DNA of 28,169 nucleotides, from the IMG/VR virus record IMGVR_UViG_3300033489_000049, positions 1 to 28,169 of that record; one strand, given 5' to 3'. The notes beneath the pieces are model-generated. The model had not been told where the DNA came from. It worked only from the letters and a program-made list of their open reading frames with translations, and made no database searches. This document shows positions 2,697-23,276 of this stretch, in pieces. Source of the stretch: a virus. Taxonomy: Duplodnaviria > Caudoviricetes. How positions within the stretch are numbered: position 1 is the stretch's first letter; every line of letters begins with the position of its first letter. A program made the position numbers and the translations under genes.

Positions 2697-2738
2697 TGCC
2701 TATTCCTCCGGCCTTCAGTCTTCAGCCTTCAGCCTTTT

Positions 2739-3719
2739 TTATGTCACTATCGTGTCGTACCAGAGGAATCCGAGATCCGATCCGGTCTGCACAATATCCG
2801 TATCCTCCGCAACCTCATAAACGTCCTGATGCTCGGCAGATTCTCTCCAAGTGGTAGTCCGGCGCGGCAGACCATCCTCATAGGCCGTTCTCGCCTGATA
2901 TCCGGCAGAGGGGATTTTCAACCCTGGCGCCGTGGGGCGATACGCGAGGAATGCCGATCCTTTCGTGGCGGTCTTTTCCCACACGTTGACGCTGGTGAAA
3001 TCAGTGCCGGCTTTAGTCTCTTTTGCGCTTGAATAGATGGCATCGCCCACAAGGACTTCTTCTAGCCCGAATACGGCAGCTATCAGGTCAGGAGTGAGCA
3101 CGCCGCGCTGGGTGTACTTGATTCTATCGAGCAGATCGTCGAGCATCTTGAGCTTGGATAGCGTGTTGGCCGATATCACCAGGACGTTCGGCCTCATGCC
3201 GGTATTGGATCTGATCGTCTCGATGCGGGTTTCCACATCATCGACAAATGTATTTGTGGCGTCGTTGGGTGCCCATAACCCCGCCGCATCCTCACCGGCG
3301 ACTGCCGACCATGTCCCCGCAAGGATCAGGGCCGCAACTCTGCGCTCTTTCTTCAGGTCGATTTTGTCCGCTGCAAATTCGAGCGCGTCCTGGTCGGGTT
3401 TCAACGGTGGCCCGCCGGCAACCTCTACCGCACGACGGTCCTCGTCGGTAACCTCTTTTGCAAATGCGTATTCTTTTGTGGCGATATCGATGAAATCCAC
3501 CGGATAACCGCCCCGGTTTGCACGGCTGCCAGGGCCTCTGATACCAGCTTCATCCCGGAACCAGGCGCCCTTGAGATACCGGGCGATCTTGGCTTTCGGC
3601 GATACTTTGTCAAGGATCGGAAAAACACGATCCGCTATATAACTTTTGTTCCGGTACGCAATGCTGACATTTTGCAGCGGACCGGCTACGATAGATTCTC
3701 TTACATTCGGTTGGGGCAT
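2739..3719 (-). CDS. Major capsid protein
   Basis: 326 aa; LQNVSIAYRN..YIADRVFP N-terminal motif, RPNVLVI; position after protease and decoration genes. Confidence 0.9.
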   Translation of the reverse strand: MPQPNVRESIVAGPLQNVSIAYRNKSYIADRVFPILDKVSPKAKIARYLKGAWFRDEAGIRGPGSRANRGGYPVDFIDIATKEYAFAKEVTDEDRRAVEVAGGPPLKPDQDALEFAADKIDLKKERRVAALILAGTWSAVAGEDAAGLWAPNDATNTFVDDVETRIETIRSNTGMRPNVLVISANTLSKLKMLDDLLDRIKYTQRGVLTPDLIAAVFGLEEVLVGDAIYSSAKETKAGTDFTSVNVWEKTATKGSAFLAYRPTAPGLKIPSAGYQARTAYEDGLPRRTTTWRESAEHQDVYEVAEDTDIVQTGSDLGFLWYDTIVT

Positions 3720-3789
3720 TTTCTATATCCTCCCTGCTTTTAAAATTGAAAATTGATTATTTTCTCGTTTCCCTTTTTACTTCCTTCAG

Positions 3790-3830
3790 CCTGCCCCGTT
3801 AAACCAGCTTTTTCTTTTGTTTAACTGGGG
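3790..3830. repeat. 41-42 bp REP-like hairpin CCTG-CCCCGTTAAAC-N14/15-GTTTAACYGGGG, copy 1 (others 17938-17978, 18548-18589, 20707-20747)
   Basis: Four near-identical copies in the same orientation, read directly. Confidence 0.9.
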
Positions 3831-3858: not shown

Positions 3859-4257
3859 TTACGCTTTGACTGTTAGTGGAGTTAAAAGACATGTCCCCAA
3901 ATCGTCCTCAACCCCGCCCTGAAGCAGCGGCCCAACGGGATACTGTGTTGCCACCGCCGCCTGAGCCTTGCCTGCATCGCTGGCGCTAACATATTCCATT
4001 CCCACAATAGCGCCGACGCCTAGTGTTGCACCAAGTTGAATCTTGGAAATCCCGCCACAACCGATGGGTCGTACTACTGCTGCTTTGTCTGCTGCGTCCG
4101 GAGCGTTCTGCAGCACGCCAAGCGGAATGTCTGTTACCGCATTAGGCCTCCGCACCTTTTCGGATGTGGCGTCCAACACAACAATCCGATACTGGTCGTT
4201 GCTCAGATCTTCATCCGCCGGGAATGATACATCTAAAACTTTGTTTTCCGTTGCCAT
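3859..4257 (-). CDS. Capsid decoration/cement protein (DUF2190-like)
   Basis: 132 aa; 'GVLQNAP' motif; between scaffold and capsid. Confidence 0.75.
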   Translation of the reverse strand: MATENKVLDVSFPADEDLSNDQYRIVVLDATSEKVRRPNAVTDIPLGVLQNAPDAADKAAVVRPIGCGGISKIQLGATLGVGAIVGMEYVSASDAGKAQAAVATQYPVGPLLQGGVEDDLGTCLLTPLTVKA

Positions 4258-4319: not shown

Positions 4320-4934
4320 TTAAGCCATTATTTCCTGTTGATACTCCTTCGCCAAATCCGGATGCTCCCGCTGAACTTCGGTAAAGGCTGCAGAATATCC
4401 GAGATCCTTATTCTCTTTCCGTTTTGCCGTGATCAGTGCTTCGATCTTTACGGTCGCATTGCCGGCGGCCGCCGCCCCGTCGCGAGTCGCCACTTCCCTA
4501 AATTCGATCACCTTCGGCAGCACGGTTTCAAACAACCCCTTGAACCGGTCAAACAGGGTGGCCTTTTCTTTCGTTTCGCCGAACTCGATGACGTCTTCTT
4601 TCTCCGCAAATGCGGAAAGCATTTCAGGTACGCCGTATTTGATCATGGCAGGGGTCATTTTGCCTGCCTTGACCTGAGTATCACACCATGCCGATATCTC
4701 TTTTTTACGCGCATCCTGGCGTGCAAGGCGCTGGGATTCAGCAAATTCCGCCGTTACCTTTTCCCGCTCCTTTTTGGCGGCTTCTTCGGCTGCCTGTTTT
4801 TTTGCGGACTCGATATCTGCCTCCGAAAATTTCAAATCTGAACTTTGAGATTTGAAATTTTCACCCGGCCCGTCATCCGGCATTTTTCCGATTAGTTCGC
4901 TGAAAAACGCTGTGAGTTTTTCCTTGAAAGTCAT
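4320..4934 (-). CDS. Nested in-frame scaffold protein (Mu Z-like)
   Basis: AAGGAGG RBS before internal ATG (MTFKEK) at 4934; charged helical sequence downstream. Confidence 0.6.
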   Translation of the reverse strand: MTFKEKLTAFFSELIGKMPDDGPGENFKSQSSDLKFSEADIESAKKQAAEEAAKKEREKVTAEFAESQRLARQDARKKEISAWCDTQVKAGKMTPAMIKYGVPEMLSAFAEKEDVIEFGETKEKATLFDRFKGLFETVLPKVIEFREVATRDGAAAAGNATVKIEALITAKRKENKDLGYSAAFTEVQREHPDLAKEYQQEIMA

Positions 4935-5603
4935 ATCTTTACCCTCCTTGCTTTTGTTTTGGCGCTCGGCAACGGAAAATTTCAAATTTGAGATTTGAGA
5001 TTTGAAATTTCCATTAATTGCCTCAACGCCGGTTGTTTCGGTTGGCCGGTTAGCCACTTCGCCTATATACGTTACATCCCAGTCCGGGATGATGGCGTCT
5101 GCTTTTTCCGTTCCTTCTTTTTCGATCAGATAATCTCGCAGCTTCCGGAACATCCGGGCGATGGCGCTAAGACCTTCCTCGTAAAAATAAAAATTCTCTT
5201 CTTTCTCATCAAAGCCGATATCAGCCAGGCCTTTTATGGCAGGGGGCGTAGCGCCCAGAAATCCCACATGCCGCAAACGGCCGTCCGGATAAAACGAGGC
5301 AGATCTCTTTTTGTACATGCCATTTTTCACCAGGTCCTCGAATTCCGGGACCACCTGCCTGAATTTCGCATACAAGACTTTTGCACCGTCAACGACCGCC
5401 TCCTTGAGATTTTCGACCCATCCGAAGGCGGGCGCGTTTTCTTTTGGGTGGCCTACCACCACGGGCGGCTCATGGTGTTTTAGGTTGAAGGTGGAGATGG
5501 CGCGGTCAATCAGCAAATCGCCATCATGGATTCGGCCCTCACTGTCTGTCTGTTTTCCGCCTCGAAAAATCTCGATCCAGTCTCCAAATCCTTTAAAATC
5601 CAT
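4320..5603 (-). CDS. Mu I-like capsid protease with C-terminal scaffold
   Basis: WIEIFRGG, PPVVVGHP, PAFGWV, YKKRSAS, LRHVGFLGATPPAIKGL. Start moved to ATG 5603 (GGAGGG RBS). Confidence 0.9.
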   Translation of the reverse strand: MDFKGFGDWIEIFRGGKQTDSEGRIHDGDLLIDRAISTFNLKHHEPPVVVGHPKENAPAFGWVENLKEAVVDGAKVLYAKFRQVVPEFEDLVKNGMYKKRSASFYPDGRLRHVGFLGATPPAIKGLADIGFDEKEENFYFYEEGLSAIARMFRKLRDYLIEKEGTEKADAIIPDWDVTYIGEVANRPTETTGVEAINGNFKSQISNLKFSVAERQNKSKEGKDMTFKEKLTAFFSELIGKMPDDGPGENFKSQSSDLKFSEADIESAKKQAAEEAAKKEREKVTAEFAESQRLARQDARKKEISAWCDTQVKAGKMTPAMIKYGVPEMLSAFAEKEDVIEFGETKEKATLFDRFKGLFETVLPKVIEFREVATRDGAAAAGNATVKIEALITAKRKENKDLGYSAAFTEVQREHPDLAKEYQQEIMA

Positions 5604-5653
5604 ATTCCTTCCCTCCTTTTGGTGCATAAAATACACCCTAGTTCTCCCGTATC

Positions 5654-5726
5654 TAACCGCAAATACACGCTAATATACGCCAATGGTTTTTCCTAATTTG
5701 CGTTCATTCGCGTTCATTCGCGGTTA
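5654..5726. repeat. ~72-bp hairpin of 3x10-mer arms (AACCGCGAATACACGCGAATATACGCTAAT / ATTTGCGTTCATTCGCGTTCATTCGCGGTT); other copies 12096-12186, 19639-19710, 23163-23234; solo arms 12041-12070, 14511-14542
   Basis: Direct sequence comparison of copies. Confidence 0.9.
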
Positions 5727-6250
5727 CCTAACAAATGATCCTTTATCGCTTCGCCGATCTCTTTCCAGTCCTCATCCTGCACCATCAAAAATGGCCTTGC
5801 AGGTATATCTCCCCAGGGGAGTTTTGCCTGCCGGGAGTGAGACCGTACTTTCGACGGCTTTCCGGATTTGGTATTCCGTATGTGCTCCTTAACCAGTGCG
5901 GTAACTACACCAAAGCTGCCCTTTTCAGCGCCGAATTGATGCACGGCGGCATAGGCCACGTTGGTGCCAACGGCGACGCTGCTTTTGTTTGCCTGGACAT
6001 TGATGCTGTTTCTCAGGCGATGCGATTCGGAAAGGGTTACCCCACCGTCATTTTTTACCCGTTGGGACACTGCCCAGCGCGGCCTTCCCCCTTTTTCGAA
6101 ATTCCGTATCACCGATGTCCGTACAACTTGGCCGATAGTTTTCATTGCAGGTGTCAGATCTTCCAGGCCGCCCTGAAGATGCGACAGCAAAGCTTTTAAC
6201 TCACTGTCATCGATCTTAACGGTTATTACGGCTCCTGACACTTTTGTCAC
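5714..6250 (-). CDS. Mu gpG-like virion morphogenesis protein
   Basis: VGTNVAYAAVHQFG and IPARPFL motifs. Confidence 0.9.
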   Translation of the reverse strand: MTKVSGAVITVKIDDSELKALLSHLQGGLEDLTPAMKTIGQVVRTSVIRNFEKGGRPRWAVSQRVKNDGGVTLSESHRLRNSINVQANKSSVAVGTNVAYAAVHQFGAEKGSFGVVTALVKEHIRNTKSGKPSKVRSHSRQAKLPWGDIPARPFLMVQDEDWKEIGEAIKDHLLGNRE

Positions 6251-6256
6251 CTTTTC

Positions 6257-6322
6257 ACCACGGATTCACACGGAAAAAATCACAGATATTTTTTCAGTGA
6301 AAACTCCGTGGATTTCCGTGGT
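6257..6322. repeat. Hairpin of 3x TCCGTG 10/11-mer arms; solo arms at 1239-1269, 21794-21825, 22405-22437
   Basis: ACCACGGATTCACACGGAAAAAATCACAGA ... TCAGTGAAAACTCCGTGGATTTCCGTGGT. Confidence 0.85.
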
Positions 6323-6335
6323 AAATTTTTATCCT

Positions 6336-6364
6336 TTGACTTTTCCTTTGTATTTACTTATAAT
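6336..6364 (+). promoter_or_regulatory. Sigma70-type promoter antisense to the late operon
   Basis: TTGACT (6336-6341), 17-nt spacer, TATAAT (6359-6364). Confidence 0.75.
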
Positions 6365-6370
6365 TCCCTC

Positions 6371-6445
6371 TATGCAGGTTTGGATCGGGCCGCGGCCTCT
6401 ATGATCCATTCCGGGCGCCCAGGTTGCTGCGGAACCTGAGGTTTT
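6371..6445 (+). ncRNA. Putative small structured RNA convergent on the MuF 3' end
   Basis: GC-rich island right after the promoter; stems TGGATC/GATCCA and CAGGTT/AACCTG. Confidence 0.45.
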
Positions 6446-7694
6446 ATCTTTTATAGATTAATTTGCCTTCCCGCTGTGCATTTAAATATTTAAAGTTGGT
6501 TGTCGGCAGCATGGTCCACGCTTCCAACATTCCTTTACGGGCCTGCGCCACAAGCAGCAATCCTCTTTCTTTTTCCAGTTCTACGGCTTTGATAATGCGC
6601 TGTCTTAATTCAACCTTGCCGGTGCCTTTGTGTTTTTCAAATGCCATCCAGATTTCATACGGGTTTTCCAGGGCTTCGGCTATCAGGGGTAAAAACGGGG
6701 TGCGTTCAGCCGGAATATGTTGGGACAGCGACTCCGCATTGACCAGGATATCATGCCTGAATTTTTTATCGTAAAACGAAAAGACCTTTTCTTCTCCGCC
6801 CAATATCTCTTTAAGGGAAGAGGCAATGGATTCCGTTGAATTGAGTTTTTTCCCGGGCTTATTTACTGCCGGATCGGCTGGTATCATTTCCGGGCGGCCG
6901 GCGCTCTGCCAGTTTCCGGAAGATAGCCGTTCCCAGGATTTTGCTCCCTGGAAGCGCCAGGCTTCCATTACTTCTTCGGAAAGTTTTTTCCCCCATGCCG
7001 CTTCTCCTACATTGTAATCCCATCCCGGATTGATTCCTTCGGGAATGCGGTACGCTTTGCCGGTGGCTTTGTCTGTCCACCGGTAGTATTTGTTTTTGGG
7101 CGCTGTTTCTTTTATGGGAAATTCACCGCCGGATTCTTCTTTTTTGAGCCGTTCCACTTCCCGTGCGCTATGACTGACCACGCCGCATTTACAGCCCCAG
7201 CCATTGGGCGGATAGTGGGTTTTCCACCAGGGATCATCGGCAGACAGAACCATGTTGTACCACTGCATATGCTCCGGCCTGCGGTTCCTGGATGTGGATG
7301 CCACATACCGCCAGTATGGCCGGGCTTTTAATACATCCGGGTCCGTCATCTGAGCATAATGCCCGGCGGAATAGGCCGTGCTTAAGTTGGTGTTGAAAAT
7401 CACCGCACTGCGCCAGCCCTTACCGCCCTTGTATTGCCAGCCGTGGCGGGTGACAATATTGTCAAAATCCTTCCGGAACTCACCGAGGGTTGTCCCCTGC
7501 GAAATGGCTTTATCCACCGCAGTATGCAACTCTGTGAGCAACTCGTCTTTCATGGCGCCGGCAGAGACAAACGCCCTAGTGTGCTGCCCCTGCCAGAGAT
7601 CCTTCCATGTGCGGGTGGGGAGATTGACCTTTTGTTTGAAAAACTCAATCGCCTCATCAAATGGCAAATTCATATAGTCAGCGCTCTTTGGCAT
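6444..7694 (-). CDS. MuF minor head protein with C-terminal PBECR2-like ribonuclease domain
   Basis: MuF core (PFDEAIEFF, RPEH, WWKTHYPPNGWGCKC) plus extension ALENPYEIW...RQRIIK...WTMLP...YLNAQREGKLIYKR. Start moved to ATG 7694. Confidence 0.88.
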   Translation of the reverse strand: MPKSADYMNLPFDEAIEFFKQKVNLPTRTWKDLWQGQHTRAFVSAGAMKDELLTELHTAVDKAISQGTTLGEFRKDFDNIVTRHGWQYKGGKGWRSAVIFNTNLSTAYSAGHYAQMTDPDVLKARPYWRYVASTSRNRRPEHMQWYNMVLSADDPWWKTHYPPNGWGCKCGVVSHSAREVERLKKEESGGEFPIKETAPKNKYYRWTDKATGKAYRIPEGINPGWDYNVGEAAWGKKLSEEVMEAWRFQGAKSWERLSSGNWQSAGRPEMIPADPAVNKPGKKLNSTESIASSLKEILGGEEKVFSFYDKKFRHDILVNAESLSQHIPAERTPFLPLIAEALENPYEIWMAFEKHKGTGKVELRQRIIKAVELEKERGLLLVAQARKGMLEAWTMLPTTNFKYLNAQREGKLIYKR

Positions 7695-9204
7695 CAAATC
7701 TCCCGGATAAATCGGCCAAAGTAAAGGCCTTTTGCATGAGATCCCCCAAAGAGGATGTGTCCATGTCTCCATATAGTTCCAGCAATCGGTCTCGGAATTC
7801 CTCTATGGAACTGACCGAAGACAGCAGCTTTTCAACCGGCGCCATAAGGTCGTCAATGGATGCGCTTTCCAGCGTTTTTTCTGATAGGGCATCCAGCGTA
7901 TCCGCCGGAGACGGGTCTGCCGCTTCCGCAAACTCCCTGCCCGTATTGGGTACTGGATATTGGGTATCTGCTGCCTGATACCTGGCCACTACAACCTCCT
8001 CCCCCTCTTCGGGTTCCGGGATATTGTAGGTTTCATAAAAATATTGTTTCGAGATGGGCACACCAATTCTGGTCAATATCTCATCCCGTTCAGCCAGAGG
8101 CTTCAGATCTCCCTCTTCCTTTGTCCTGACCCATAATTTCGGATAGTCCGAAACATCTGGAAAGTTGTAATCCACGATCCATTTCACCAGGGTATCGTTT
8201 AAACATTCACACAACAGATCCGCATCGGCTTTGAGAACATCTTCCCGGACATCGTTATGCGTCTGGCTTGCCGCATAAGATCCTTCTCCCTTAACTTCCG
8301 TTGTCAGCGTCTGGCCCAGGACGGCTTTGGATATCTGCCGGTCCATGTAGTCGCAAAGTGTCTCATAAGATACATGCCCCTGTCTGGCAGCTTCCAGTAA
8401 CTCGATAGCCATGTTTTCCGGAATGATAATGCCCGTCTCTTGGTGAATCGCTTCGAGGGCGTTGAGCAGCTTTGCCTGCTCAGCCGGATCGGCGCCGGGC
8501 GGGTACTTCCCCACGCCTGTGGGTCCCCCAAACTTTTCCAGGAAAACCAGCCAGAATTTAATGCCGTTTTTCTTGAACCATACCGGCCACCAGAGCTTTT
8601 GCCCCAGTCCCGAACCGTAAGGGTTGTCGCTGGAACCATAGGTAAAAACGATGAACTTACGGTCTGGCACCGGCTCTCCGTCGATCATATTGTTTAGTGT
8701 AAGCAGCCGAAGCTCCCGGTCCATCGTAAAAACAAATCTCCTGGGATGTTTGGCCCGAATCTTTTGCGGGATCACATATCCTGAAACCACCTGCCATAGG
8801 ATTTCCGCCACATAAAACCCATACAAAATCCCCTGCAATAATTCCTGCCGGAACTGGTCGAAATTTATATTCACCAATACTTCCCGGACAAAATCGGCAA
8901 TTGCCTGCGCCCTTTCTTCAGTCCCCGCCTTTCCCGCTTTTCCCGCTTTTCCCGCTTTTTCCTGTCCTGGCAACACTTCCCACTCTTTCCCGGTAACCGC
9001 CAGATACCGGGTTTGAAGCACCGCGCCCGCATGGGCATCCCGGTCTACTTCATCGTAAAGTTTCAATCCCTTGCCGGACGCTTCCGTGCGCAAAACCGGA
9101 TCAGGATTCTCCAGCCGTTTCAGCCATCCGGCAAAGATATCCAGGTCTTTGGATGTGGTTGCGATCTCATCAGTAACCGGTTTTTTTATGTTTTTTCCCG
9201 CCAT
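7678..9204 (-). CDS. Portal protein (Mu gp29/DUF935)
   Basis: NPYGSGL...WWPVWFK...FLEKFG.P, ISKAVLGQTLTT, GSYAASQTHNDVR. Confidence 0.93.
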   Translation of the reverse strand: MAGKNIKKPVTDEIATTSKDLDIFAGWLKRLENPDPVLRTEASGKGLKLYDEVDRDAHAGAVLQTRYLAVTGKEWEVLPGQEKAGKAGKAGKAGTEERAQAIADFVREVLVNINFDQFRQELLQGILYGFYVAEILWQVVSGYVIPQKIRAKHPRRFVFTMDRELRLLTLNNMIDGEPVPDRKFIVFTYGSSDNPYGSGLGQKLWWPVWFKKNGIKFWLVFLEKFGGPTGVGKYPPGADPAEQAKLLNALEAIHQETGIIIPENMAIELLEAARQGHVSYETLCDYMDRQISKAVLGQTLTTEVKGEGSYAASQTHNDVREDVLKADADLLCECLNDTLVKWIVDYNFPDVSDYPKLWVRTKEEGDLKPLAERDEILTRIGVPISKQYFYETYNIPEPEEGEEVVVARYQAADTQYPVPNTGREFAEAADPSPADTLDALSEKTLESASIDDLMAPVEKLLSSVSSIEEFRDRLLELYGDMDTSSLGDLMQKAFTLADLSGRFDAKER

Positions 9205-9298
9205 CCCTTTATCCTTCTAAAACCGTTTGAACCGTTTGAACGGCTTGAACTGTTTTTCCCGTCTTTCCCGCTTTTCTCGCTTTTCTCGCTTGCCGTTC

Positions 9299-10717
9299 TT
9301 AAGCCCCCATATAATTTCCTATCCGGGTGAAATTTCGCTTGCGTCCTGTGGATTGATATTCAATAACCCCCGCGGGCCTGCTGCCCGCATGAATAGCCAA
9401 AGCCAGCGCCCAAAATCTGTCCGCATGGCCGCCAGGTCCGTGATCCGCATCAAACCGGATATTGCCCGCGGCCGTTGTGGTTTTCCGGATGCTGCGCAGA
9501 TCCGCCCGGATCTGATCATCTCTCGGGATCCGGATGGCTTTGTCCTCGAATGCCGCCCGCACCGGGTAGGCCAACTCTTCTTTGACCGGGCCGGTAAACC
9601 GCACCGGCTCAACTTTGTAGCTGCCAAACCGCTCAACCGCTCGCTCGGCAAATTGCATACCCAGGCCTGTATCGTCGATGCAGCACCGTCTCAATCCGGG
9701 CATTGCCAGCAATGGCCAAAGCGCTGCTTCCTGTGCGCTGAACGTCTCTCCCTGGTATGTCCAAAGCCCCCGGGTGAAAAACACGCCTGAAACGCGCTCC
9801 AGGAGCCAAAACACTGTTAAATCATTCTGCCGCCCAACATCCACCCCCAGATATAATTCTTTGGTCTGTGTTTGTCTGTGTGGGTCTGTGGCTAATTTCC
9901 ATTGCTCGTCATGCCTATACTCGCATGAGGCGATCAGGTCGTAAGACAGAAACGCCCCTGCATCGTCTGCCGGAATGCACATATATTCCTGCGCAAATTG
10001 TTCTGAGCTCGCGCACCCTTTCCGGATGTAATCGAAGTACTCGGCCTCATCCATCTCCTGGATGGGATCGTCTTTGGGAAATACCTGCTGCAATTTATAT
10101 AAAAAACCCTGATCTAGGGCGTTTTGCAGAGTAACCGTATGAAGGGAAAAGCCCATCGGGTTGCCCCGGTGCTTTACGTCCTCGCAGATCTCGTTGAAAA
10201 AGTTTACGCTTCCCCTGTGCGTGCTGATGATTTCCAGTTGACCGCCCCAGGTAATCCCGGGATAAGCGATGCTGTATAATTTGCGCGGATCGGGATGAAG
10301 GGCAAACTCATCGAGGATGCGTCCGCCTTTCTTTCCGGACTGCGCGTCGGGGTTGCTGCTCATGCTATGAATTCTTAAACCATTTGCAAATTCCAGCACA
10401 TAAGCGGAAAATTTTTTCTCTTCGTCGATGATCACGGCCCCCAAATCTTTGGCTGCCACATTAAGCATCCGGGCAAAGCGTTTGCAATCTTCCAAGAAAA
10501 GTCGCGCCTGGATGTCATCCCGGCTGCTCACCCATTGCTCATTCCGGGCATCCCTGGGAGCAGTGCGTTCTACCGCACCGTAGGCTGTCCCCCAGGAGAT
10601 TCCGATCTGGCGGCTTTTTTCCATCAGCTTCAACCGGTGATCGTCATCGATCCACCGCTGCTGATAGGGCAGAAAAACCTTGTCGGATCTTTCCGGTATG
10701 ATTTTCGCTTTTCCCAC
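9299..10717 (-). CDS. Terminase large subunit (Mu gp28-like)
   Basis: FLPYQQRW, EKSRQIGISW, ILDEFA, QEYMC, LGVDVGR, HADRFWALALA. Confidence 0.95.
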   Translation of the reverse strand: MGKAKIIPERSDKVFLPYQQRWIDDDHRLKLMEKSRQIGISWGTAYGAVERTAPRDARNEQWVSSRDDIQARLFLEDCKRFARMLNVAAKDLGAVIIDEEKKFSAYVLEFANGLRIHSMSSNPDAQSGKKGGRILDEFALHPDPRKLYSIAYPGITWGGQLEIISTHRGSVNFFNEICEDVKHRGNPMGFSLHTVTLQNALDQGFLYKLQQVFPKDDPIQEMDEAEYFDYIRKGCASSEQFAQEYMCIPADDAGAFLSYDLIASCEYRHDEQWKLATDPHRQTQTKELYLGVDVGRQNDLTVFWLLERVSGVFFTRGLWTYQGETFSAQEAALWPLLAMPGLRRCCIDDTGLGMQFAERAVERFGSYKVEPVRFTGPVKEELAYPVRAAFEDKAIRIPRDDQIRADLRSIRKTTTAAGNIRFDADHGPGGHADRFWALALAIHAGSRPAGVIEYQSTGRKRNFTRIGNYMGA

Positions 10718-11393: not shown

Positions 11394-11431
11394 TTTTCTG
11401 ACCTCCGGCCTCTGACCTCTGACCTCTGGCA

Positions 11432-11992: not shown

Positions 11993-12201
11993 GCGCTATT
12001 TCCTTTTTTTCGGTTTAAACCGCTTAAACGGTTTTTCCTTTTTGCGTTCATTCGCGTTCATTCGCGGTTACTTTTTTCTCGCCTTTCCCTCTACCAACCG
12101 CGAATACACGCTAATATACGCAAATAATGTATCTTTTTTATTCTTCTTTTATCCCATTCGCGTTTATTGGCGTTCATTCGCGGTTACTTTTTTCTCGCCT
12201 T

Positions 12202-12726
12202 TCATTTGATTTTTACCGCGTCATCGAATACCCCCAGCCCCGGAATGTCGCACGGCCTTGGCGCTTTTCCCGTAGGATTTTTCATGGGGATCCCCGCATT
12301 TTGCCAGGCGAGGTAGGCAAATTCGGAGCAGAAAAACCGCTTCGCTTCGGCGGACACCCGCCCGAATACCTGTCGAAACAGGCTTTCGTAATCGTATTCA
12401 ACGCCAACGAACGATAAAGCCCATGCGCCGATGGCATATCGCTTGTTGTCAAAATCGGTCGATAGCGGCAGCCAAAACGCTTCCCCATTGTGCATAGCAA
12501 GACGCCTGGAAAGAGACGTCAAAACGATCCCCGGCTCCAGCGCTTCTAGCAAAAACACACGATCGTACGGATCATAATATTCTATCCGCACCACCAGGCT
12601 CGTGTGGTTAACGCCCTTGGAAAACATCCGGATCAAAAACCCCAATGCCGTATGTGAACGCCACTGAATCGCATCCCCCGTTTTGATCCTGTGACGATTA
12701 TCCTGATATGCATCATTTACTACCAT
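12202..12726 (-). CDS. Permuted papain-like amidase (YaeF/YiiX, peptidase C92 family)
   Basis: GD.I, NHTSL (His first), YDY, FFCSEF (Cys last). Confidence 0.85.
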   Translation of the reverse strand: MVVNDAYQDNRHRIKTGDAIQWRSHTALGFLIRMFSKGVNHTSLVVRIEYYDPYDRVFLLEALEPGIVLTSLSRRLAMHNGEAFWLPLSTDFDNKRYAIGAWALSFVGVEYDYESLFRQVFGRVSAEAKRFFCSEFAYLAWQNAGIPMKNPTGKAPRPCDIPGLGVFDDAVKIK

Positions 12727-12839
12727 TTGTACTTCCTTCTACCTTCATTATTTCTCGCCCTTCTCGCCTTTCCCGCCTTTCTAACTACTCCTACTACCTC
12801 ATAAACCCTTCATTTACCTGCATTCCGTCAATGTACTTT

Positions 12840-14485: not shown

Positions 14486-14541
14486 CGGTCCGCCCCTTAA
14501 TCCCTTCTTTTCATTCGCATTCATTAGCGTTCATTAGCGGT

Positions 14542-14736
14542 TCACACCATCTCAATCGTTTCTTCCACCCGCTCCTGAATATCCCGGAGCCAGATCTCGA
14601 TGTCTTCACGTTGCTGGGTCGGTTTCTCCCCGGTCGGATTGATCAGAAACAACACCGCGCCCAACATGCCACGCAGACGCATGAGATTGTCCGTAATCGC
14701 GTCCCTCCGTTCAAAATTGTCCATCTCGTTTTTCAT
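14542..14736 (-). CDS. Hypothetical protein
   Basis: MKNEMDNF...; GGAGG RBS; overlaps the rha stop. Confidence 0.6.
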   Translation of the reverse strand: MKNEMDNFERRDAITDNLMRLRGMLGAVLFLINPTGEKPTQQREDIEIWLRDIQERVEETIEMV

Positions 14737-16424: not shown

Positions 16425-16599
16425 TTGCTTTTTCCCCGTCCTCAAATCCATGTTTATACCCATGCTGAAATTCTTCCCGTGCGATCTGTTCAACGATCGG
16501 CGACAGCAGACCCACCAGCCAAGTCGCGTGCGCCCCACCCAGCCGCTTCGCCGTTTCCTGCCAGGATTCATCCTTCGATGTCCGATGTTCAGCGTTCAT
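16354..16599 (-). CDS. Hypothetical protein
   Basis: MNAEHRTSKDESWQ...EEFQHGYKHGFEDG; GAGGTG RBS. Confidence 0.55.
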   Translation of the reverse strand: MNAEHRTSKDESWQETAKRLGGAHATWLVGLLSPIVEQIAREEFQHGYKHGFEDGEKANGKRKDIDTYGKGRACPENCGND

Positions 16600-17395
16600 T
16601 TCTTTGCACCTCAAACGTTTTAACCTCCAACCTCGCCAGAGCCAATATGCTCGGTTTGATTTCCTCCGGCGCATCCTTATATCCGTGTTTGTTCAATCTG
16701 AGCAATTCAGACCTGGAGACCAGCGCCAAATTGTCCGGATCGAAATTCAGTTTGTCCCCGTCTTTAAAGATCACCGCATGGCCGTCCGGTACCGGTCCGT
16801 GGATCTGCTCCCAAATATGGACGTGTTTTGCCTTATATCTCGTAGGAAAACCGGCGTAAGGGTTGCGTTCCCGCACCTTGATCATCACATAGTCCTTCTC
16901 GATCCGTTCGGAACCGTCCGGTTTCCGGTTGGCGGGCACGTTTCCCTTTCGGAAACTGGTTTTGTTTGCTCCCGTAAGCCCCTGCCCCTTTGTACCTTTG
17001 TTCCAGGGCGTAAATCCTTTTTCAAAAAACCCGGTCCGGCCAGAGGTGATGCCCCGGTTATGCACGAATGTTTTGATCTGATGATGTGTCATGGACGTGT
17101 CGAATCTTTGGTTGAATATATCCGTCATCTCCGCAATGCTTCGGCCCGCATAATTATCCCGTATGAACCGGATCTGCTCCGGAGTAAACAGCCGGATCCG
17201 GTTGACCAGCCGGTCTTTTGGTTTTCGCCCGCAGGTGATGTGGTGGTTTTTAAGCGCAGATTTTATCTGGCACTCGTTTTTTTTCTGCCCAAAGGCCCGG
17301 TTGAATGCCGCTGTCAGATCGCTCACCTTCATAGACCGGTATTCGTCTTTTAAAAATGCCAGGGCGCCCGGTGTGTATCTATTCCTTCTCGTCAT
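16589..17395 (-). CDS. HNH endonuclease family protein
   Basis: FEKGFTPWNKG, FRKGNVPAN, KHVHIWEQIHGPVP.GH.V.FKDG...N...NL. Start moved to 17395. Confidence 0.85.
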   Translation of the reverse strand: MTRRNRYTPGALAFLKDEYRSMKVSDLTAAFNRAFGQKKNECQIKSALKNHHITCGRKPKDRLVNRIRLFTPEQIRFIRDNYAGRSIAEMTDIFNQRFDTSMTHHQIKTFVHNRGITSGRTGFFEKGFTPWNKGTKGQGLTGANKTSFRKGNVPANRKPDGSERIEKDYVMIKVRERNPYAGFPTRYKAKHVHIWEQIHGPVPDGHAVIFKDGDKLNFDPDNLALVSRSELLRLNKHGYKDAPEEIKPSILALARLEVKTFEVQRNER

Positions 17396-18827: not shown

Positions 18828-18905
18828 ATCTATTATCTTTCACCACAGAGACCACAGAGGTCACAGAGAAAAACATTTTAATTAATTGTCTGTGTTTGTC
18901 TGTGG

Positions 18906-19616: not shown

Positions 19617-19731
19617 ACTTTCTCGCCTTCCCCGATACTAACCGCGAATAAACGCGAATATACGCTAATGGTTTTTTTTGATTTGCGTTCATTCGCGTTC
19701 ATTCGCGGTTCCTTTTTTCTCGCCTTCCCCG

Positions 19732-19950: not shown

Positions 19951-20483
19951 TTCTCATCTACCCCCAATATCCAGTTTCGATTTTCCAGTTTCCGGAAATC
20001 CTTTAACGACATCAACCCTTCATCCTTCGATGTTCGATGTTCGATGTTCGACGTTCGACGTTCAGTTCTTTTTATTTCTTCCCTTTCCATTTCTTCAGCC
20101 GCTGTCATCCCCTCAGCGCTGATCCGCTCCGAATGCTCAGTCAAAATCTTCTTGAAATAATTATGATTTTTAAATCCGAACTTATCCAGATTGCATACTA
20201 CCTGGAGCCCCGCTTTGATCGATGGTTTATCCACCCGGTATTGTTTTCCGGAATAACTATACATCCCCGTCTCCCAGAATTTGGCCAGATCGGAAAGCAG
20301 TCGCACCCGTTTTTTCAGGCTCACGTCGCTATGTTTGTCTGCCCGGAATGCGTCCACATATTCGTTTGACAGTGCCCAGATGGGAGACATCGCAGCTGCC
20401 AGCCGCACCATCTCCTCCAGCGCTGTATGGTTCAGAGCCTCATCAAAGTTAAACTTCTTTCTACAGTGAGGACAAACGATCAT
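19947..20483 (-). CDS. Hypothetical protein, Mu-like semi-essential region
   Basis: N-terminal CPHC, Y..AFR, NHNYFKKIL. Confidence 0.7.
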   Translation of the reverse strand: MIVCPHCRKKFNFDEALNHTALEEMVRLAAAMSPIWALSNEYVDAFRADKHSDVSLKKRVRLLSDLAKFWETGMYSYSGKQYRVDKPSIKAGLQVVCNLDKFGFKNHNYFKKILTEHSERISAEGMTAAEEMEREEIKRTERRTSNIEHRTSKDEGLMSLKDFRKLENRNWILGVDEK

Positions 20484-21788: not shown

Positions 21789-21789
21789 A

Positions 21790-22313
21790 TTATCCCGTGT
21801 CCTTTCCGTGAAGAATCCGTGGTGGTTTTTTGTTTTCCCTGATCCTTTTCAGCTTCTCCCGCTTCGCCTCATTCACCGGCGTATCCGGCCCAGGATCGTT
21901 AATCATCTGCCATGTATCCATCGATGTTTTTTTAATAATCCCAGCCCGTTTCAAAAACCCAAGAAACTCCAAGACCGTGGACCGTTTAGCCCCGGATAAT
22001 CTTTCGATCTCTCCGGTATCGAAAAACCGGTGGGACCGGACCAGATGCCACATGATGTCGTTGTATGTCCGGGAAGTGATATTTCTCGGCTGGTACCGGT
22101 ACCGTCCAGGCTCGATAATAACGTGCTCCCCGGTCCGCTTCATGTTGGCAAACGCTCCTTTGATTTGCATGGTGGAAAGATAGGGCGCAAAATCTTCTAT
22201 GTCCGGCAGCGTATATTCTCCAAACATCTTCGCAACTGCCCGCACCTTAAGCGTAATCGTCGGAAGCGCCGTAATATTTTTACGAATTTTCTGCTTCTCT
22301 GATTGTTTCATCA
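21790..22313 (-). CDS. Putative DNA-binding protein with tandem wHTH-like regions
   Basis: MWHLVR...F...EIERLSGAKRSTVLEFL..L..AG.I...W.MINDPGP; follows MuB. Confidence 0.65.
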
Positions 22314-22399: not shown

Positions 22400-22437
22400 T
22401 TTATTCCGTGCCCTTTCCGTGATAAATCCGTGGTAAA

Positions 22438-23136
22438 TTATTTCCCACGGAGTCCTTGTTTGATCGCCATCCGCACCAGATCATCGCTGATTTTATCAGG
22501 TTTATTCACGGCGATCATGTCTTCAAGCCGACGGACATCTCTGGCGACCAGCCGGAAGTCCCCGTCAGAAGCCTCCCGGATCATTTCTCCCTGGTTAGCG
22601 GTCAGCGCCAGATCGGCCGCCTGCTTGGCAAAGAACAGAATGTCGGTTGTGGTGATTGGCCCGAACTCCACGCACTGATGCGTCCGGCTCCATATCCTTT
22701 TTTCTTTTTCCATTTTGTGCCGGATCAGGAGCTCTCCCACCAGGGCAAATGGCGTAAGAGAAACATCGGCCAGGTCCCGAATCCAGTCCAGGAGCGTTTC
22801 GGAGAGTTTATCCGCCTCATCCACGACTACTGTACGACCGGTGGATAGCAGAGTTCTTTTTATAGCCTCAAACGCCGGTTTCTTACGTCCGGGAATGGGA
22901 TCAACGCCCAACTCAAAGCAAAAATCCTGGAGCATCCATAATTCGGTCCAGCCCCGCAGCGCCCGGACGTAGCACCATCCCTCCTGTGCCGCAAAAAACC
23001 TAGCTGCGGACGTTTTTCCCCGGCCCGCCTGCCCGTAAAATACCAGCAACGCAGGCTCGGATTTGATCTTCTCCGCCTCCCGCATAGGAGCGATAAAATT
23101 CTTTACATTCTGCGTATGAACAAACACGTTTTTCAT
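22438..23136 (-). CDS. muB: MuB-like AAA+ transposition ATPase
   Basis: Walker A GQAGRGKT, Walker B VVVDEAD, WSR, GDFR; downstream of the transposase. Confidence 0.93.
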   Translation of the reverse strand: MKNVFVHTQNVKNFIAPMREAEKIKSEPALLVFYGQAGRGKTSAARFFAAQEGWCYVRALRGWTELWMLQDFCFELGVDPIPGRKKPAFEAIKRTLLSTGRTVVVDEADKLSETLLDWIRDLADVSLTPFALVGELLIRHKMEKEKRIWSRTHQCVEFGPITTTDILFFAKQAADLALTANQGEMIREASDGDFRLVARDVRRLEDMIAVNKPDKISDDLVRMAIKQGLRGK

Positions 23137-23276
23137 ATTTCAAATTTCCAGTTTCCAGCTATTAACCGCGAACACACGCGAATATACGCTAATGATTTCT
23201 TCTAATTTGCGTTCATTAGCGTTCATTCGCGGTTCCTTTTCACTTTTCTCGCTTTTCTCGCTTTTTTCATCAGCCT

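Follow-up and report, generated by a model that had tools for sequence, protein, structure and literature searches.

What does a Mu-like phage keep directly behind a head protein gene that ends in a predicted nuclease domain? The question is raised by a viral contig of 28,169 bases with a completeness rating of 56% (IMG/VR record IMGVR_UViG_3300033489_000049; hereafter the window, meaning the whole stretch analysed). Here the gene for a MuF minor head protein with a C-terminal PBECR2 RNase-like domain (6444-7772, minus strand; longest open reading frame (ORF), 442 amino acids (aa)) is separated from the following gpG-type gene by an intergenic gap of 193 bp (6251-6443). A first-pass annotation had placed in this gap a plus-strand promoter and a small structured RNA, instead of the gene for an immunity protein. 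Comparative analysis indicates that the window element is very probably a conserved small-RNA gene whose direction is convergent with that of MuF. Its family, with about 50 members found here and strong covariation, is absent from Rfam and deserves description whatever its function.

The putative gene begins with a sigma-70-type promoter-like site, TTGACT-17-TATAAT, located at 6336-6364 on the plus strand as previously annotated. It matches the consensus at 11/12 positions, is the sole site above 9/12 in 5000-8000, and its predicted start lies near 6371-6372. The conserved element itself spans 72 positions (6374-6445, plus strand) and was delimited by covariance models and covariation: a hairpin, a linker and a second hairpin, with the two loops paired to each other. 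In the first hairpin (6377-6412, plus), a TT/TT internal mismatch interrupts the pairing of 6377-6386 with 6403-6412, and the loop has 16 nt (6387-6402). In the second (6420-6438, plus), CAGGTT pairs with AACCTG across a 7-nt loop, and this stem doubles as a terminator stem in the window. The loop-loop pseudoknot (6390-6432, plus) is formed by CCGCGGC (6390-6396) and GCTGCGG (6426-6432), with one G·U pair. A U-rich tail (GTTTTATCTTTTATA; 6441-6455, plus) follows the second hairpin as a terminator-like site; as the predicted 3' end, it covers the final codons of MuF. With AGGTTTTATC behind it, the second stem was scored as a terminator-like site, and a hairpin plus U-run is thus located at the MuF stop, where the element had been expected to end. 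The first hairpin is part of the plus-strand minimum-free-energy fold, and both stems read in the first-pass annotation, TGGATC (6381)/GATCCA (6403) and CAGGTT (6420)/AACCTG (6433), are found in that fold. An additional proposal, that a second CAGGTT copy (6375) competes for AACCTG, received no comparative support: in the family this copy falls within the outer part of the first hairpin.

The coding potential of the gap is low. On the gene (minus) strand there is no ORF of at least 30 aa within 6251-6443; at a floor of 20 aa, three short ORFs overlap the gap (plus strand, 35 and 43 aa; minus strand, 26 aa). The two plus-strand ORFs had no match in a Pfam search. A small same-strand immunity ORF directly downstream of MuF was not found: the sole minus-strand candidate is the 26-aa frame, which we rejected as a gene, its start codon being missing in relatives compared by eye. 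We also considered a small peptide, MQVWIGPRPL, encoded by a 10-codon frame at the predicted 5' end of the RNA, since a similar frame occurs in L051, L060 and L079-type loci. By eye, its start codon is missing in L045, L047, L080 and L023 and its stop is not conserved in L063. The peptide reading is also disfavoured by the covariation of the 5' arm of the first hairpin with an arm outside the frame.

Few close relatives were returned when the MuF protein was the query, the closest full-length ones being encoded in a Syntrophobacteraceae genome bin (54% identity) and a Lentisphaerae bin (51%); scanning viral contigs with an alignment provided 80 further MuF loci. Long MuF genes (~400-440 aa) mostly have a gap of 90-150 nt downstream, and short ones (~240 aa) have no gap before the next gene; Pfam PBECR2 was found in 46/48 long proteins versus 0/7 short ones. 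When the gaps were compared side by side, a common GC-rich element emerged, with two hairpins and complementary loops. Thirteen elements aligned with MAFFT lent support to three helices and provided the first covariance model, R1, from which the loop-loop helix was left out. In 97 sources (441,574 bases, both strands), R1 found 20 matches, all in the same orientation, and model R2 found 22, every one of them antisense to PBECR2; the window element scores 65.1 bits with R1 and 67.1 bits with R2 (E 9.5e-7). A further scan, starting from the PBECR2 domain with an alignment of closer sequences (A9), yielded 45 matches distributed over 43 of 79 loci, again all antisense to PBECR2 (45/45), with 29 on contigs not matched earlier. 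The family is broad: the MuF proteins of the about 50 element-bearing Mu-like loci are only 33-69% identical. Two consecutive copies of the element (2177-2248 and 2401-2469) stand behind one PBECR2 gene in L151/L152, the second with a different loop-loop sequence.

R2 searches with filters off yielded only noise on 22 further PBECR2 loci and on seven deposited phage loci (Ralstonia YO357_1, Ps59, MT835710, Lsp-JY19, EBPR siphovirus 4, RR1-B and Mu). By eye, and with no model match, the gap of Rhizobium phage RR1-B is similarly laid out; this phage is a possible cultured test system.

The folded structure is strongly supported by covariation. In an alignment of 20 sequences re-aligned in the opposite orientation, 82.6% of the cells were paired, compared with 62.9% in shuffled alignments (0/500 reach the observed value) and at most 47.4% when the partners were slid, and 19 of the 21 pairs had changed on both sides. 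With 39 distinct sequences the proportion rose to 89.1%, versus 67.0% in shuffles (again 0/500 reach it) and at most 53.4% with partners slid, and compensatory changes on both sides were found in all 21 pairs. The covarying structure that the first-pass annotation had suggested looking for downstream of MuF-PBECR2 genes is therefore present. For single helices, the first hairpin (alignment A6, columns 4-13 with 37-46) was paired in 82.5% of the cells, with 9 of 10 pairs changing on both sides, and the second (alignment A10, columns 76-80 with 91-95) in 88.3%. Alignments fitted to a model favour its nested helices; the loop-loop helix lies outside the model. This helix was paired in 90.2% of the cells versus 75.4% in shuffles, in 92.5% among the 39 distinct sequences, where 7/7 pairs had changed on both sides, and in 93.1% among 26 new sequences present in no seed (shuffled maximum 84.4%, n=1000). 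Examples of the loop pairs are CCGCAGC/GCTGCGG, TCGTGGC/GCCACGA, ATGTGGC/GCCACAT, CCGCGAT/ATCGCGG and ACGCGGC/GCCGCGT.

Which strand folds can be read from the wobble pairs. In the plus-strand orientation, the helices contain 26 G·U versus 12 A·C combinations, and the 26 new sequences contain 38 versus 7; in the unfitted loop-loop helix of the new sequences the counts are 7 versus 1. G·U is in excess over A·C and the plus strand is therefore the folded one, in agreement with the RNA strand originally chosen. The alternative of a folded MuF-sense strand was rejected on these counts and on the promoter test below.

A sigma-70-like site of at least 9/12 ends 4-11 nt before the element in 15/22 loci, when shuffled sequences give a mean of 0.16 and a maximum of 3 (n=1000) and the mirrored control on the sense side gives 0/22. 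The same arrangement was found in 33/43 loci of the further set, two of which have a 12/12 site, and transcription is predicted to start 0-3 nt upstream of the element. The -35 hexamer of most relatives directly adjoins the complement of the gpG start codon. Four loci (the window, L045, L057 and L050) have the promoter displaced 14-155 nt from the start of the next gene, with its 16-18-nt spacer kept, and in L053, L096 and L099, where other genes lie between MuF and the element, promoter and element remain together. Because the promoter follows the element when displaced and lies on the folded strand, a convergent promoter and a plus-strand RNA are supported, and the conserved convergent promoter anticipated from the window alone proves to be a family trait (15/22 and 33/43 loci). 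The MuF-RNA junction looks like a hot spot for insertions. L096 has at 2710-3820 a low-GC ORF resembling, by eye only, a RelA/SpoT-type small alarmone synthetase, then an 89-aa ORF; L099 has a 185-aa lipoprotein-like ORF (2724-3281) between MuF and the element.

The position of the element relative to MuF bears on a simple antisense role. In 42/43 loci it starts between -44 and +34 nt of the PBECR2 stop, that is, from 44 nt inside the frame to 34 nt past it. At most about 44 nt of the element thus overlap coding sequence, which makes a simple antisense silencer of MuF, one of the roles first suggested, unlikely.

Does the RNA belong to the nuclease domain, or only to the site? The RNase-like extension recognised at the end of MuF is a clear PBECR2 domain (aa 325-441; 6450-6800, minus strand; delimited by Pfam and the columns of alignment A8): the match to PF18810 covers profile positions 11-120 of 120 with E 2.3e-23 and 83.1 bits, the cut-off being 27.1. 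At E <= 0.01 the only Pfam matches of the MuF protein are Phage_Mu_F and PBECR2, with no family of the ToxN/AbiQ type. The catalytic residues of PBECR domains are given as a conserved His and a C-terminal Thr/Ser in the relevant passages of Iyer et al. (2017, PMC5512222), where the Mu domain is called inactive and its orthologues likely RNases. The window domain has H (SLSQHI, in the N-terminal helix), T (EAWTML) and R (AQREGK), within a signature H-R-E-W-T-R-G. This signature, which includes the predicted catalytic residues, is complete in 22/22 RNA-bearing loci of the R2 search and in 43/43 of the further set. Six PBECR2 genes overlap or abut the next gene and leave no room for the RNA (Mu, L017, L087, L103, Pseudomonas phage Ps59 and record MT835710), and all six are degenerate, lacking at least one signature residue. 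The His is missing in five of them, and L087 keeps it and lacks the Thr and an Arg. L115, L117 and L122, in which PBECR2 is followed by small ORFs, are degenerate too.

The association is also seen from the side of the RNA, since RNA-bearing matches were found beside PBECR2 genes only. An RNA-first search of five genomes gave a single match, at the MuF locus of a 6-Mb genome, and none in the other four; among 151 genomes of that phylum two have a match, both between MuF and gpG. A scan of the viral collection with an RNA pattern returned eight matches, of which six were true, all adjoining MuF; the other two (L135, L137) are chance matches in coding DNA without a nearby MuF and were rejected. 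No element was found by R2 in the short-MuF loci searched, though some of these are the closest relatives of the window MuF over its N-terminal half (65-71% identity), and none was found in L008, L022 and L026, whose MuF proteins end in other domains. These latter relatives carry a DRAT-type ADP-ribosyltransferase (L008/L026, E 7.2e-9) or a weak match of the ATLF metallopeptidase type (L022; 21.1 bits, below the Pfam cut-off). In eight matched loci (L143, L144, L146, L147 (= L046), L150, L162 (= L063), L170 and L196) the PBECR2 frame is only 183-249 aa long. MuF is split there into N- and C-terminal frames, and the RNA stays by the PBECR2 part. As the split recurs on several contigs, it probably reflects a genuine division of the gene or a programmed shift rather than a sequencing error. 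As far as such comparisons go, a link between the RNA and the nuclease is suggested.

We tentatively propose that the predicted RNA and the PBECR2 RNase domain are cognate partners, with inhibition of the RNase as the most plausible role of the RNA, a reading to which we give somewhat less than an even chance. The RNA would be transcribed from the 6336-6364 promoter, probably constitutively; the promoter looks strong and unregulated, and the RNA would therefore be present also in the lysogen. It would end at the hairpin and U-run by the MuF stop, at about 6450-6455, for a length of about 75-85 nt. Once folded, it may bind the active RNase domain and protect the producing cell for as long as the protein has not entered a head, or protect a lysogen into which a related phage particle delivers the protein. 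A decoy or substrate role fits the same data. A fuller version, in which the pseudoknot RNA would be an immunity factor for a virion-carried BECR-fold RNase, made constitutively, binding the PBECR2 active site and protecting both the producer and kin lysogens, is possible and in our judgement doubtful.

Several observations weigh against an RNA partner of the nuclease, or against parts of the argument for it. No RNA run was found among the sequencing runs that contain this stretch, which yielded contigs of DNA only. Folded as a single sequence, the plus strand is not more stable than expected by chance (z = -1.55; 20/200 shuffles as good). A hairpin plus U-run terminator occurs in 3/22 family loci only, and the terminator was rejected as a family feature for this reason. 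Common descent confounds the correlation with the signature residues, as all RNA-bearing loci belong to a single broad clade and the loci without the RNA are more remote, which leaves perhaps five or six independent lineages. Signature residues are part of the patterns with which the 79-locus sample was selected, and its count of 76/78 intact domains is biased for that reason. Thirty-three intact loci have no model match at E <= 1. These have similar gaps, with promoter-like sites antisense in 13/33 versus sense in 1/33 and a predicted start-to-stop distance of mostly 70-85 nt, and in an earlier set of this wider similar-gap class the antisense sites numbered 7/24 versus 1/24 for sense sites; the wider class rests on layout, not homology. 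The joint loss of domain and RNA could be explained by adjacency alone. L114 has an intact PBECR2 though it is overlapped by a predicted ORF, and part of the element is visible there by eye. Finally, no BECR-fold RNase is known to have an RNA inhibitor, the known inhibitors being proteins.

What else might the RNA do? It could regulate the late operon by cis-antisense pairing or transcription interference, without a direct tie to the RNase. Fully complementary to the late mRNA between F and G, it would provoke cleavage there or damp read-through into gpG and the head genes, silencing for example leaky transcription in the lysogen. The layout lends itself to such a role, the gene lying inside the late operon on the opposite strand, with its -35 hexamer against the complement of the gpG start codon in most relatives and its element overlapping the MuF stop by up to 44 nt in several loci. 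A plain antisense RNA, however, needs neither conserved loop-loop pairing nor conserved unpaired bases, and this pairing would bury the loops, which antisense RNAs usually expose. Such a regulator also leaves unexplained why the element is absent from short-MuF phages with the same F-G junction and why the PBECR2 genes without RNA have degenerate catalytic residues, and it must accommodate the other genes between MuF and the element in L053, L096 and L099. We consider it unlikely, if the most serious competitor. Those same insertions, and the tandem copies in L151 and L152, would also fit a reading in which the F-G junction is merely a hot spot at which a trans-acting prophage small RNA (a 'moron') directed at host or phage genes has settled beside MuF; the small size, the own promoter and the conservation as an independent unit agree with this. 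Yet no complementarity of the RNA to the rest of the 28-kb window is longer than 11 nt, the loops are taken up by internal pairing, and the co-occurrence with PBECR2 in RNA-first searches is strict, so that a moron of this kind seems rather improbable.

Two further explanations do without a plus-strand RNA altogether. The late mRNA must carry the complement of the element, which at most loci starts only a few bases from the MuF stop, and one might therefore think of a sense-strand structure behind MuF, such as a signal for read-through or frameshifting, a site of processing or an element that stabilises the 3' end. We regard this as very unlikely: the G·U versus A·C counts favour the opposite strand (26 vs 12; 38 vs 7), the stop position varies from -44 to +34 nt and the spacing is thus not fixed, the conserved promoter points the opposite way, and the single-sequence fold of the MuF-sense (minus) strand is unremarkable (z = -0.42). 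The remaining alternative is a DNA-level site, for example a strong gyrase site at the genome centre, or a late promoter together with the site of its activator. A gyrase cut site is annotated for phage Mu in a comparable central gap, the 196-bp one between G and I, the window gap would stand near the middle of a genome of ~40 kb (our own estimate from a contig that is 56% complete), and the CCACGGA palindrome next to the element could bind a protein. The compensatory changes in three helices, the pseudoknot included, point instead to a single-stranded fold and not to a duplex binding site, and the palindrome belongs to a separate dispersed cassette (see below); a DNA site is the least probable of the explanations considered and hardly credible. 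An RNA partner of the PBECR2 domain is the best supported of the hypotheses considered.

The closest parallel is offered by type III toxin-antitoxin systems (ToxIN, CptIN, TenpIN), in which an endoribonuclease and an adjacent small pseudoknotted RNA take part in the conflict between phage and bacterium, the folded RNA blocking the RNase. The type III antitoxin consists of tandem direct repeats upstream of the toxin gene, and the toxin is of the ToxN/AbiQ type. The present locus likewise has a predicted RNase domain with a putative pseudoknotted RNA encoded beside it, and the mode of blocking that we propose is the same. It differs in that the RNA is single-copy, without a tandem array (L151 and L152 are the only loci with two separate copies, and no tandem repeat was found within 6336-6455 of the window). 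The RNA is also downstream of the RNase gene, convergent with it and preceded by its own promoter-like site, and the RNase is of the BECR type (Pfam PBECR2), forming the tail of a virion protein made late. Lacking the tandem repeats, the upstream position and a ToxN-type toxin, the RNA-PBECR2 pair would be a new variant and not a member of type III.

The MuF polymorphic toxins of temperate phages, as presented in the part of Jamet et al. (2017, PMC5576092) that concerns them, have the same plan of an N-terminal MuF and a variable C-terminal effector. The need for an antidote to an active cytosolic nuclease is argued there, a small ORF is reported after 89.4% of 191 MuF toxin genes, and the Proteobacterial extension (Ct_MAD) is left in those passages without known function or immunity. 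The present locus differs from MuF toxins with protein immunity in having no such small ORF and an RNA gene in its place. The feature 'instead of an immunity gene', pointed out in the first-pass annotation, is not peculiar to this locus: no small immunity ORF stands at this position in the Mu-like loci inspected and PBECR2 is described, in the section of PMC5512222 that treats it, as the ordinary C-terminal domain of Mu gp30-type MuF proteins. Phage Mu gp30 itself (MuF with the MuF-C/PBECR domain) is the same two-domain protein at the same place in the late operon. In contrast to the window domain, which keeps all three, the Mu domain lacks the His, the Thr and the Arg, and Mu F overlaps G by 4 nt, without an RNA gene, where the window has the RNA.

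Small structured RNAs of temperate phages include the P1 c4 and P4 CI immunity RNAs (Rfam C4 family) and the orphan motif Mu-gpT-DE, which is located after a Mu-like head gene; the window RNA differs from both in fold and gene context. At the gathering score, Rfam 15 gave no match to the gap in the window or in 20 relatives. At E <= 10, the element of the window and of L051 gave no family either, the only returns being a 19-nt chance match inside it (bZIP, 15 bits) and miRNA-type noise elsewhere. We found no description of an RNA adjoining MuF/PBECR2 in the literature, subscription journals and supplementary files being outside the coverage. The expectation of an undescribed module is borne out to this extent.

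MuF proteins with a C-terminal PBECR2 (Ct_MAD/MuF-C) are common in Mu-like temperate phages, and 128 of the 243 matching records in the deposited phage collection cover most of the MuF protein. In the passages that describe the domain, both papers (PMC5512222, PMC5576092) leave its function and the survival of the producing cell open. An RNA that stands beside catalytically intact PBECR2 versions only is a concrete, testable candidate for this survival. If the RNA does inhibit the RNase, RNA-based antitoxins would extend to a new enzyme fold and to virion-delivered effectors. If it is indeed an immunity factor, it would represent a new class of RNA antitoxin, unlike type III in toxin fold, gene order and RNA architecture, and would supply the missing antidote for a widespread Proteobacterial MuF C-terminal domain.

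Both late and early regions of a transposable phage of the Mu type are present on the contig, with nearly all genes on the minus strand. In the order of transcription, the neighbourhood consists of the large terminase (9299-10717), a Mu-type portal (7678-9204), MuF, the gpG-type virion morphogenesis or tail completion gene (5714-6250; Pfam Phage_tail_S, E 6.3e-24; PHROG 26), a protease (4320-5636), a scaffold (3859-4257) and the major head protein (2739-3719), all on the minus strand. GTG 6241 may be an alternative start of gpG. MuF matches Pfam Phage_Mu_F (E 1.5e-16) and, over aa 27-441, PHROG 220 (E 1.1e-91). The homologues aligned with it all begin at MP.., which corresponds to M27 (7694), 26 codons inside the longest ORF; the true start is probably ATG 7694, which would reduce the overlap with the end of the portal gene (7678) to 17 nt.

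Between the RNA promoter and gpG lies a leader cassette of 95 nt (6243-6337, no strand assigned), containing the CCACGGA palindrome (6253-6325) together with the gpG ribosome site and the gpG start. Soil metagenome contigs carry exactly 6243-6337 joined to different flanks. One arm of the palindrome resembles the leaders of three other genes of the window and is related to repeat family D7, and the minus-strand fold of the cassette is stable (z = -3.79). It is a dispersed cassette, separate from the RNA gene, and from the comparison of flanks we infer that it was inserted between the RNA promoter and gpG in this phage.

Other repeats are found throughout the window. Most minus-strand genes are preceded by two to four tandem copies of a 7-11-nt unit reaching the ribosome site (for example at 1233-1275, 2697-2740, 9205-9300, 11396-11431, 12727-12800, 16566-16604, 18828-18880, 20018-20070, 21789-21831 and 22400-22442), with units of the types CACGGA-N4-5, GAAGGCT/GAAGACT, GGTCAGA, AAGCGGGAA, GGTTCAAAC, TCGAACA, AAACTGGAA and GTGACCTCT; this leader architecture is very unusual. 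Intergenic palindromes of ~89 nt, whose arms are three tandem CGCGAAT-type units, occur at 5643-5731, 12025-12205 (two copies), 19628-19716, 23152-23240 and partly at 14498-14562. The copy in the gap between gpG and the protease (5654-5726) is found with other flanks in contigs from four soil metagenome runs, at summed depths of up to 75.8, and is therefore a widely dispersed repeat. Among the small early or middle genes, the minus strand at 15478-15563 matches the Rfam family sRNA-Xcc1 (RF02221) over the full model length, scoring 66.1 bits where the gathering score is 53 (E 4.3e-10).

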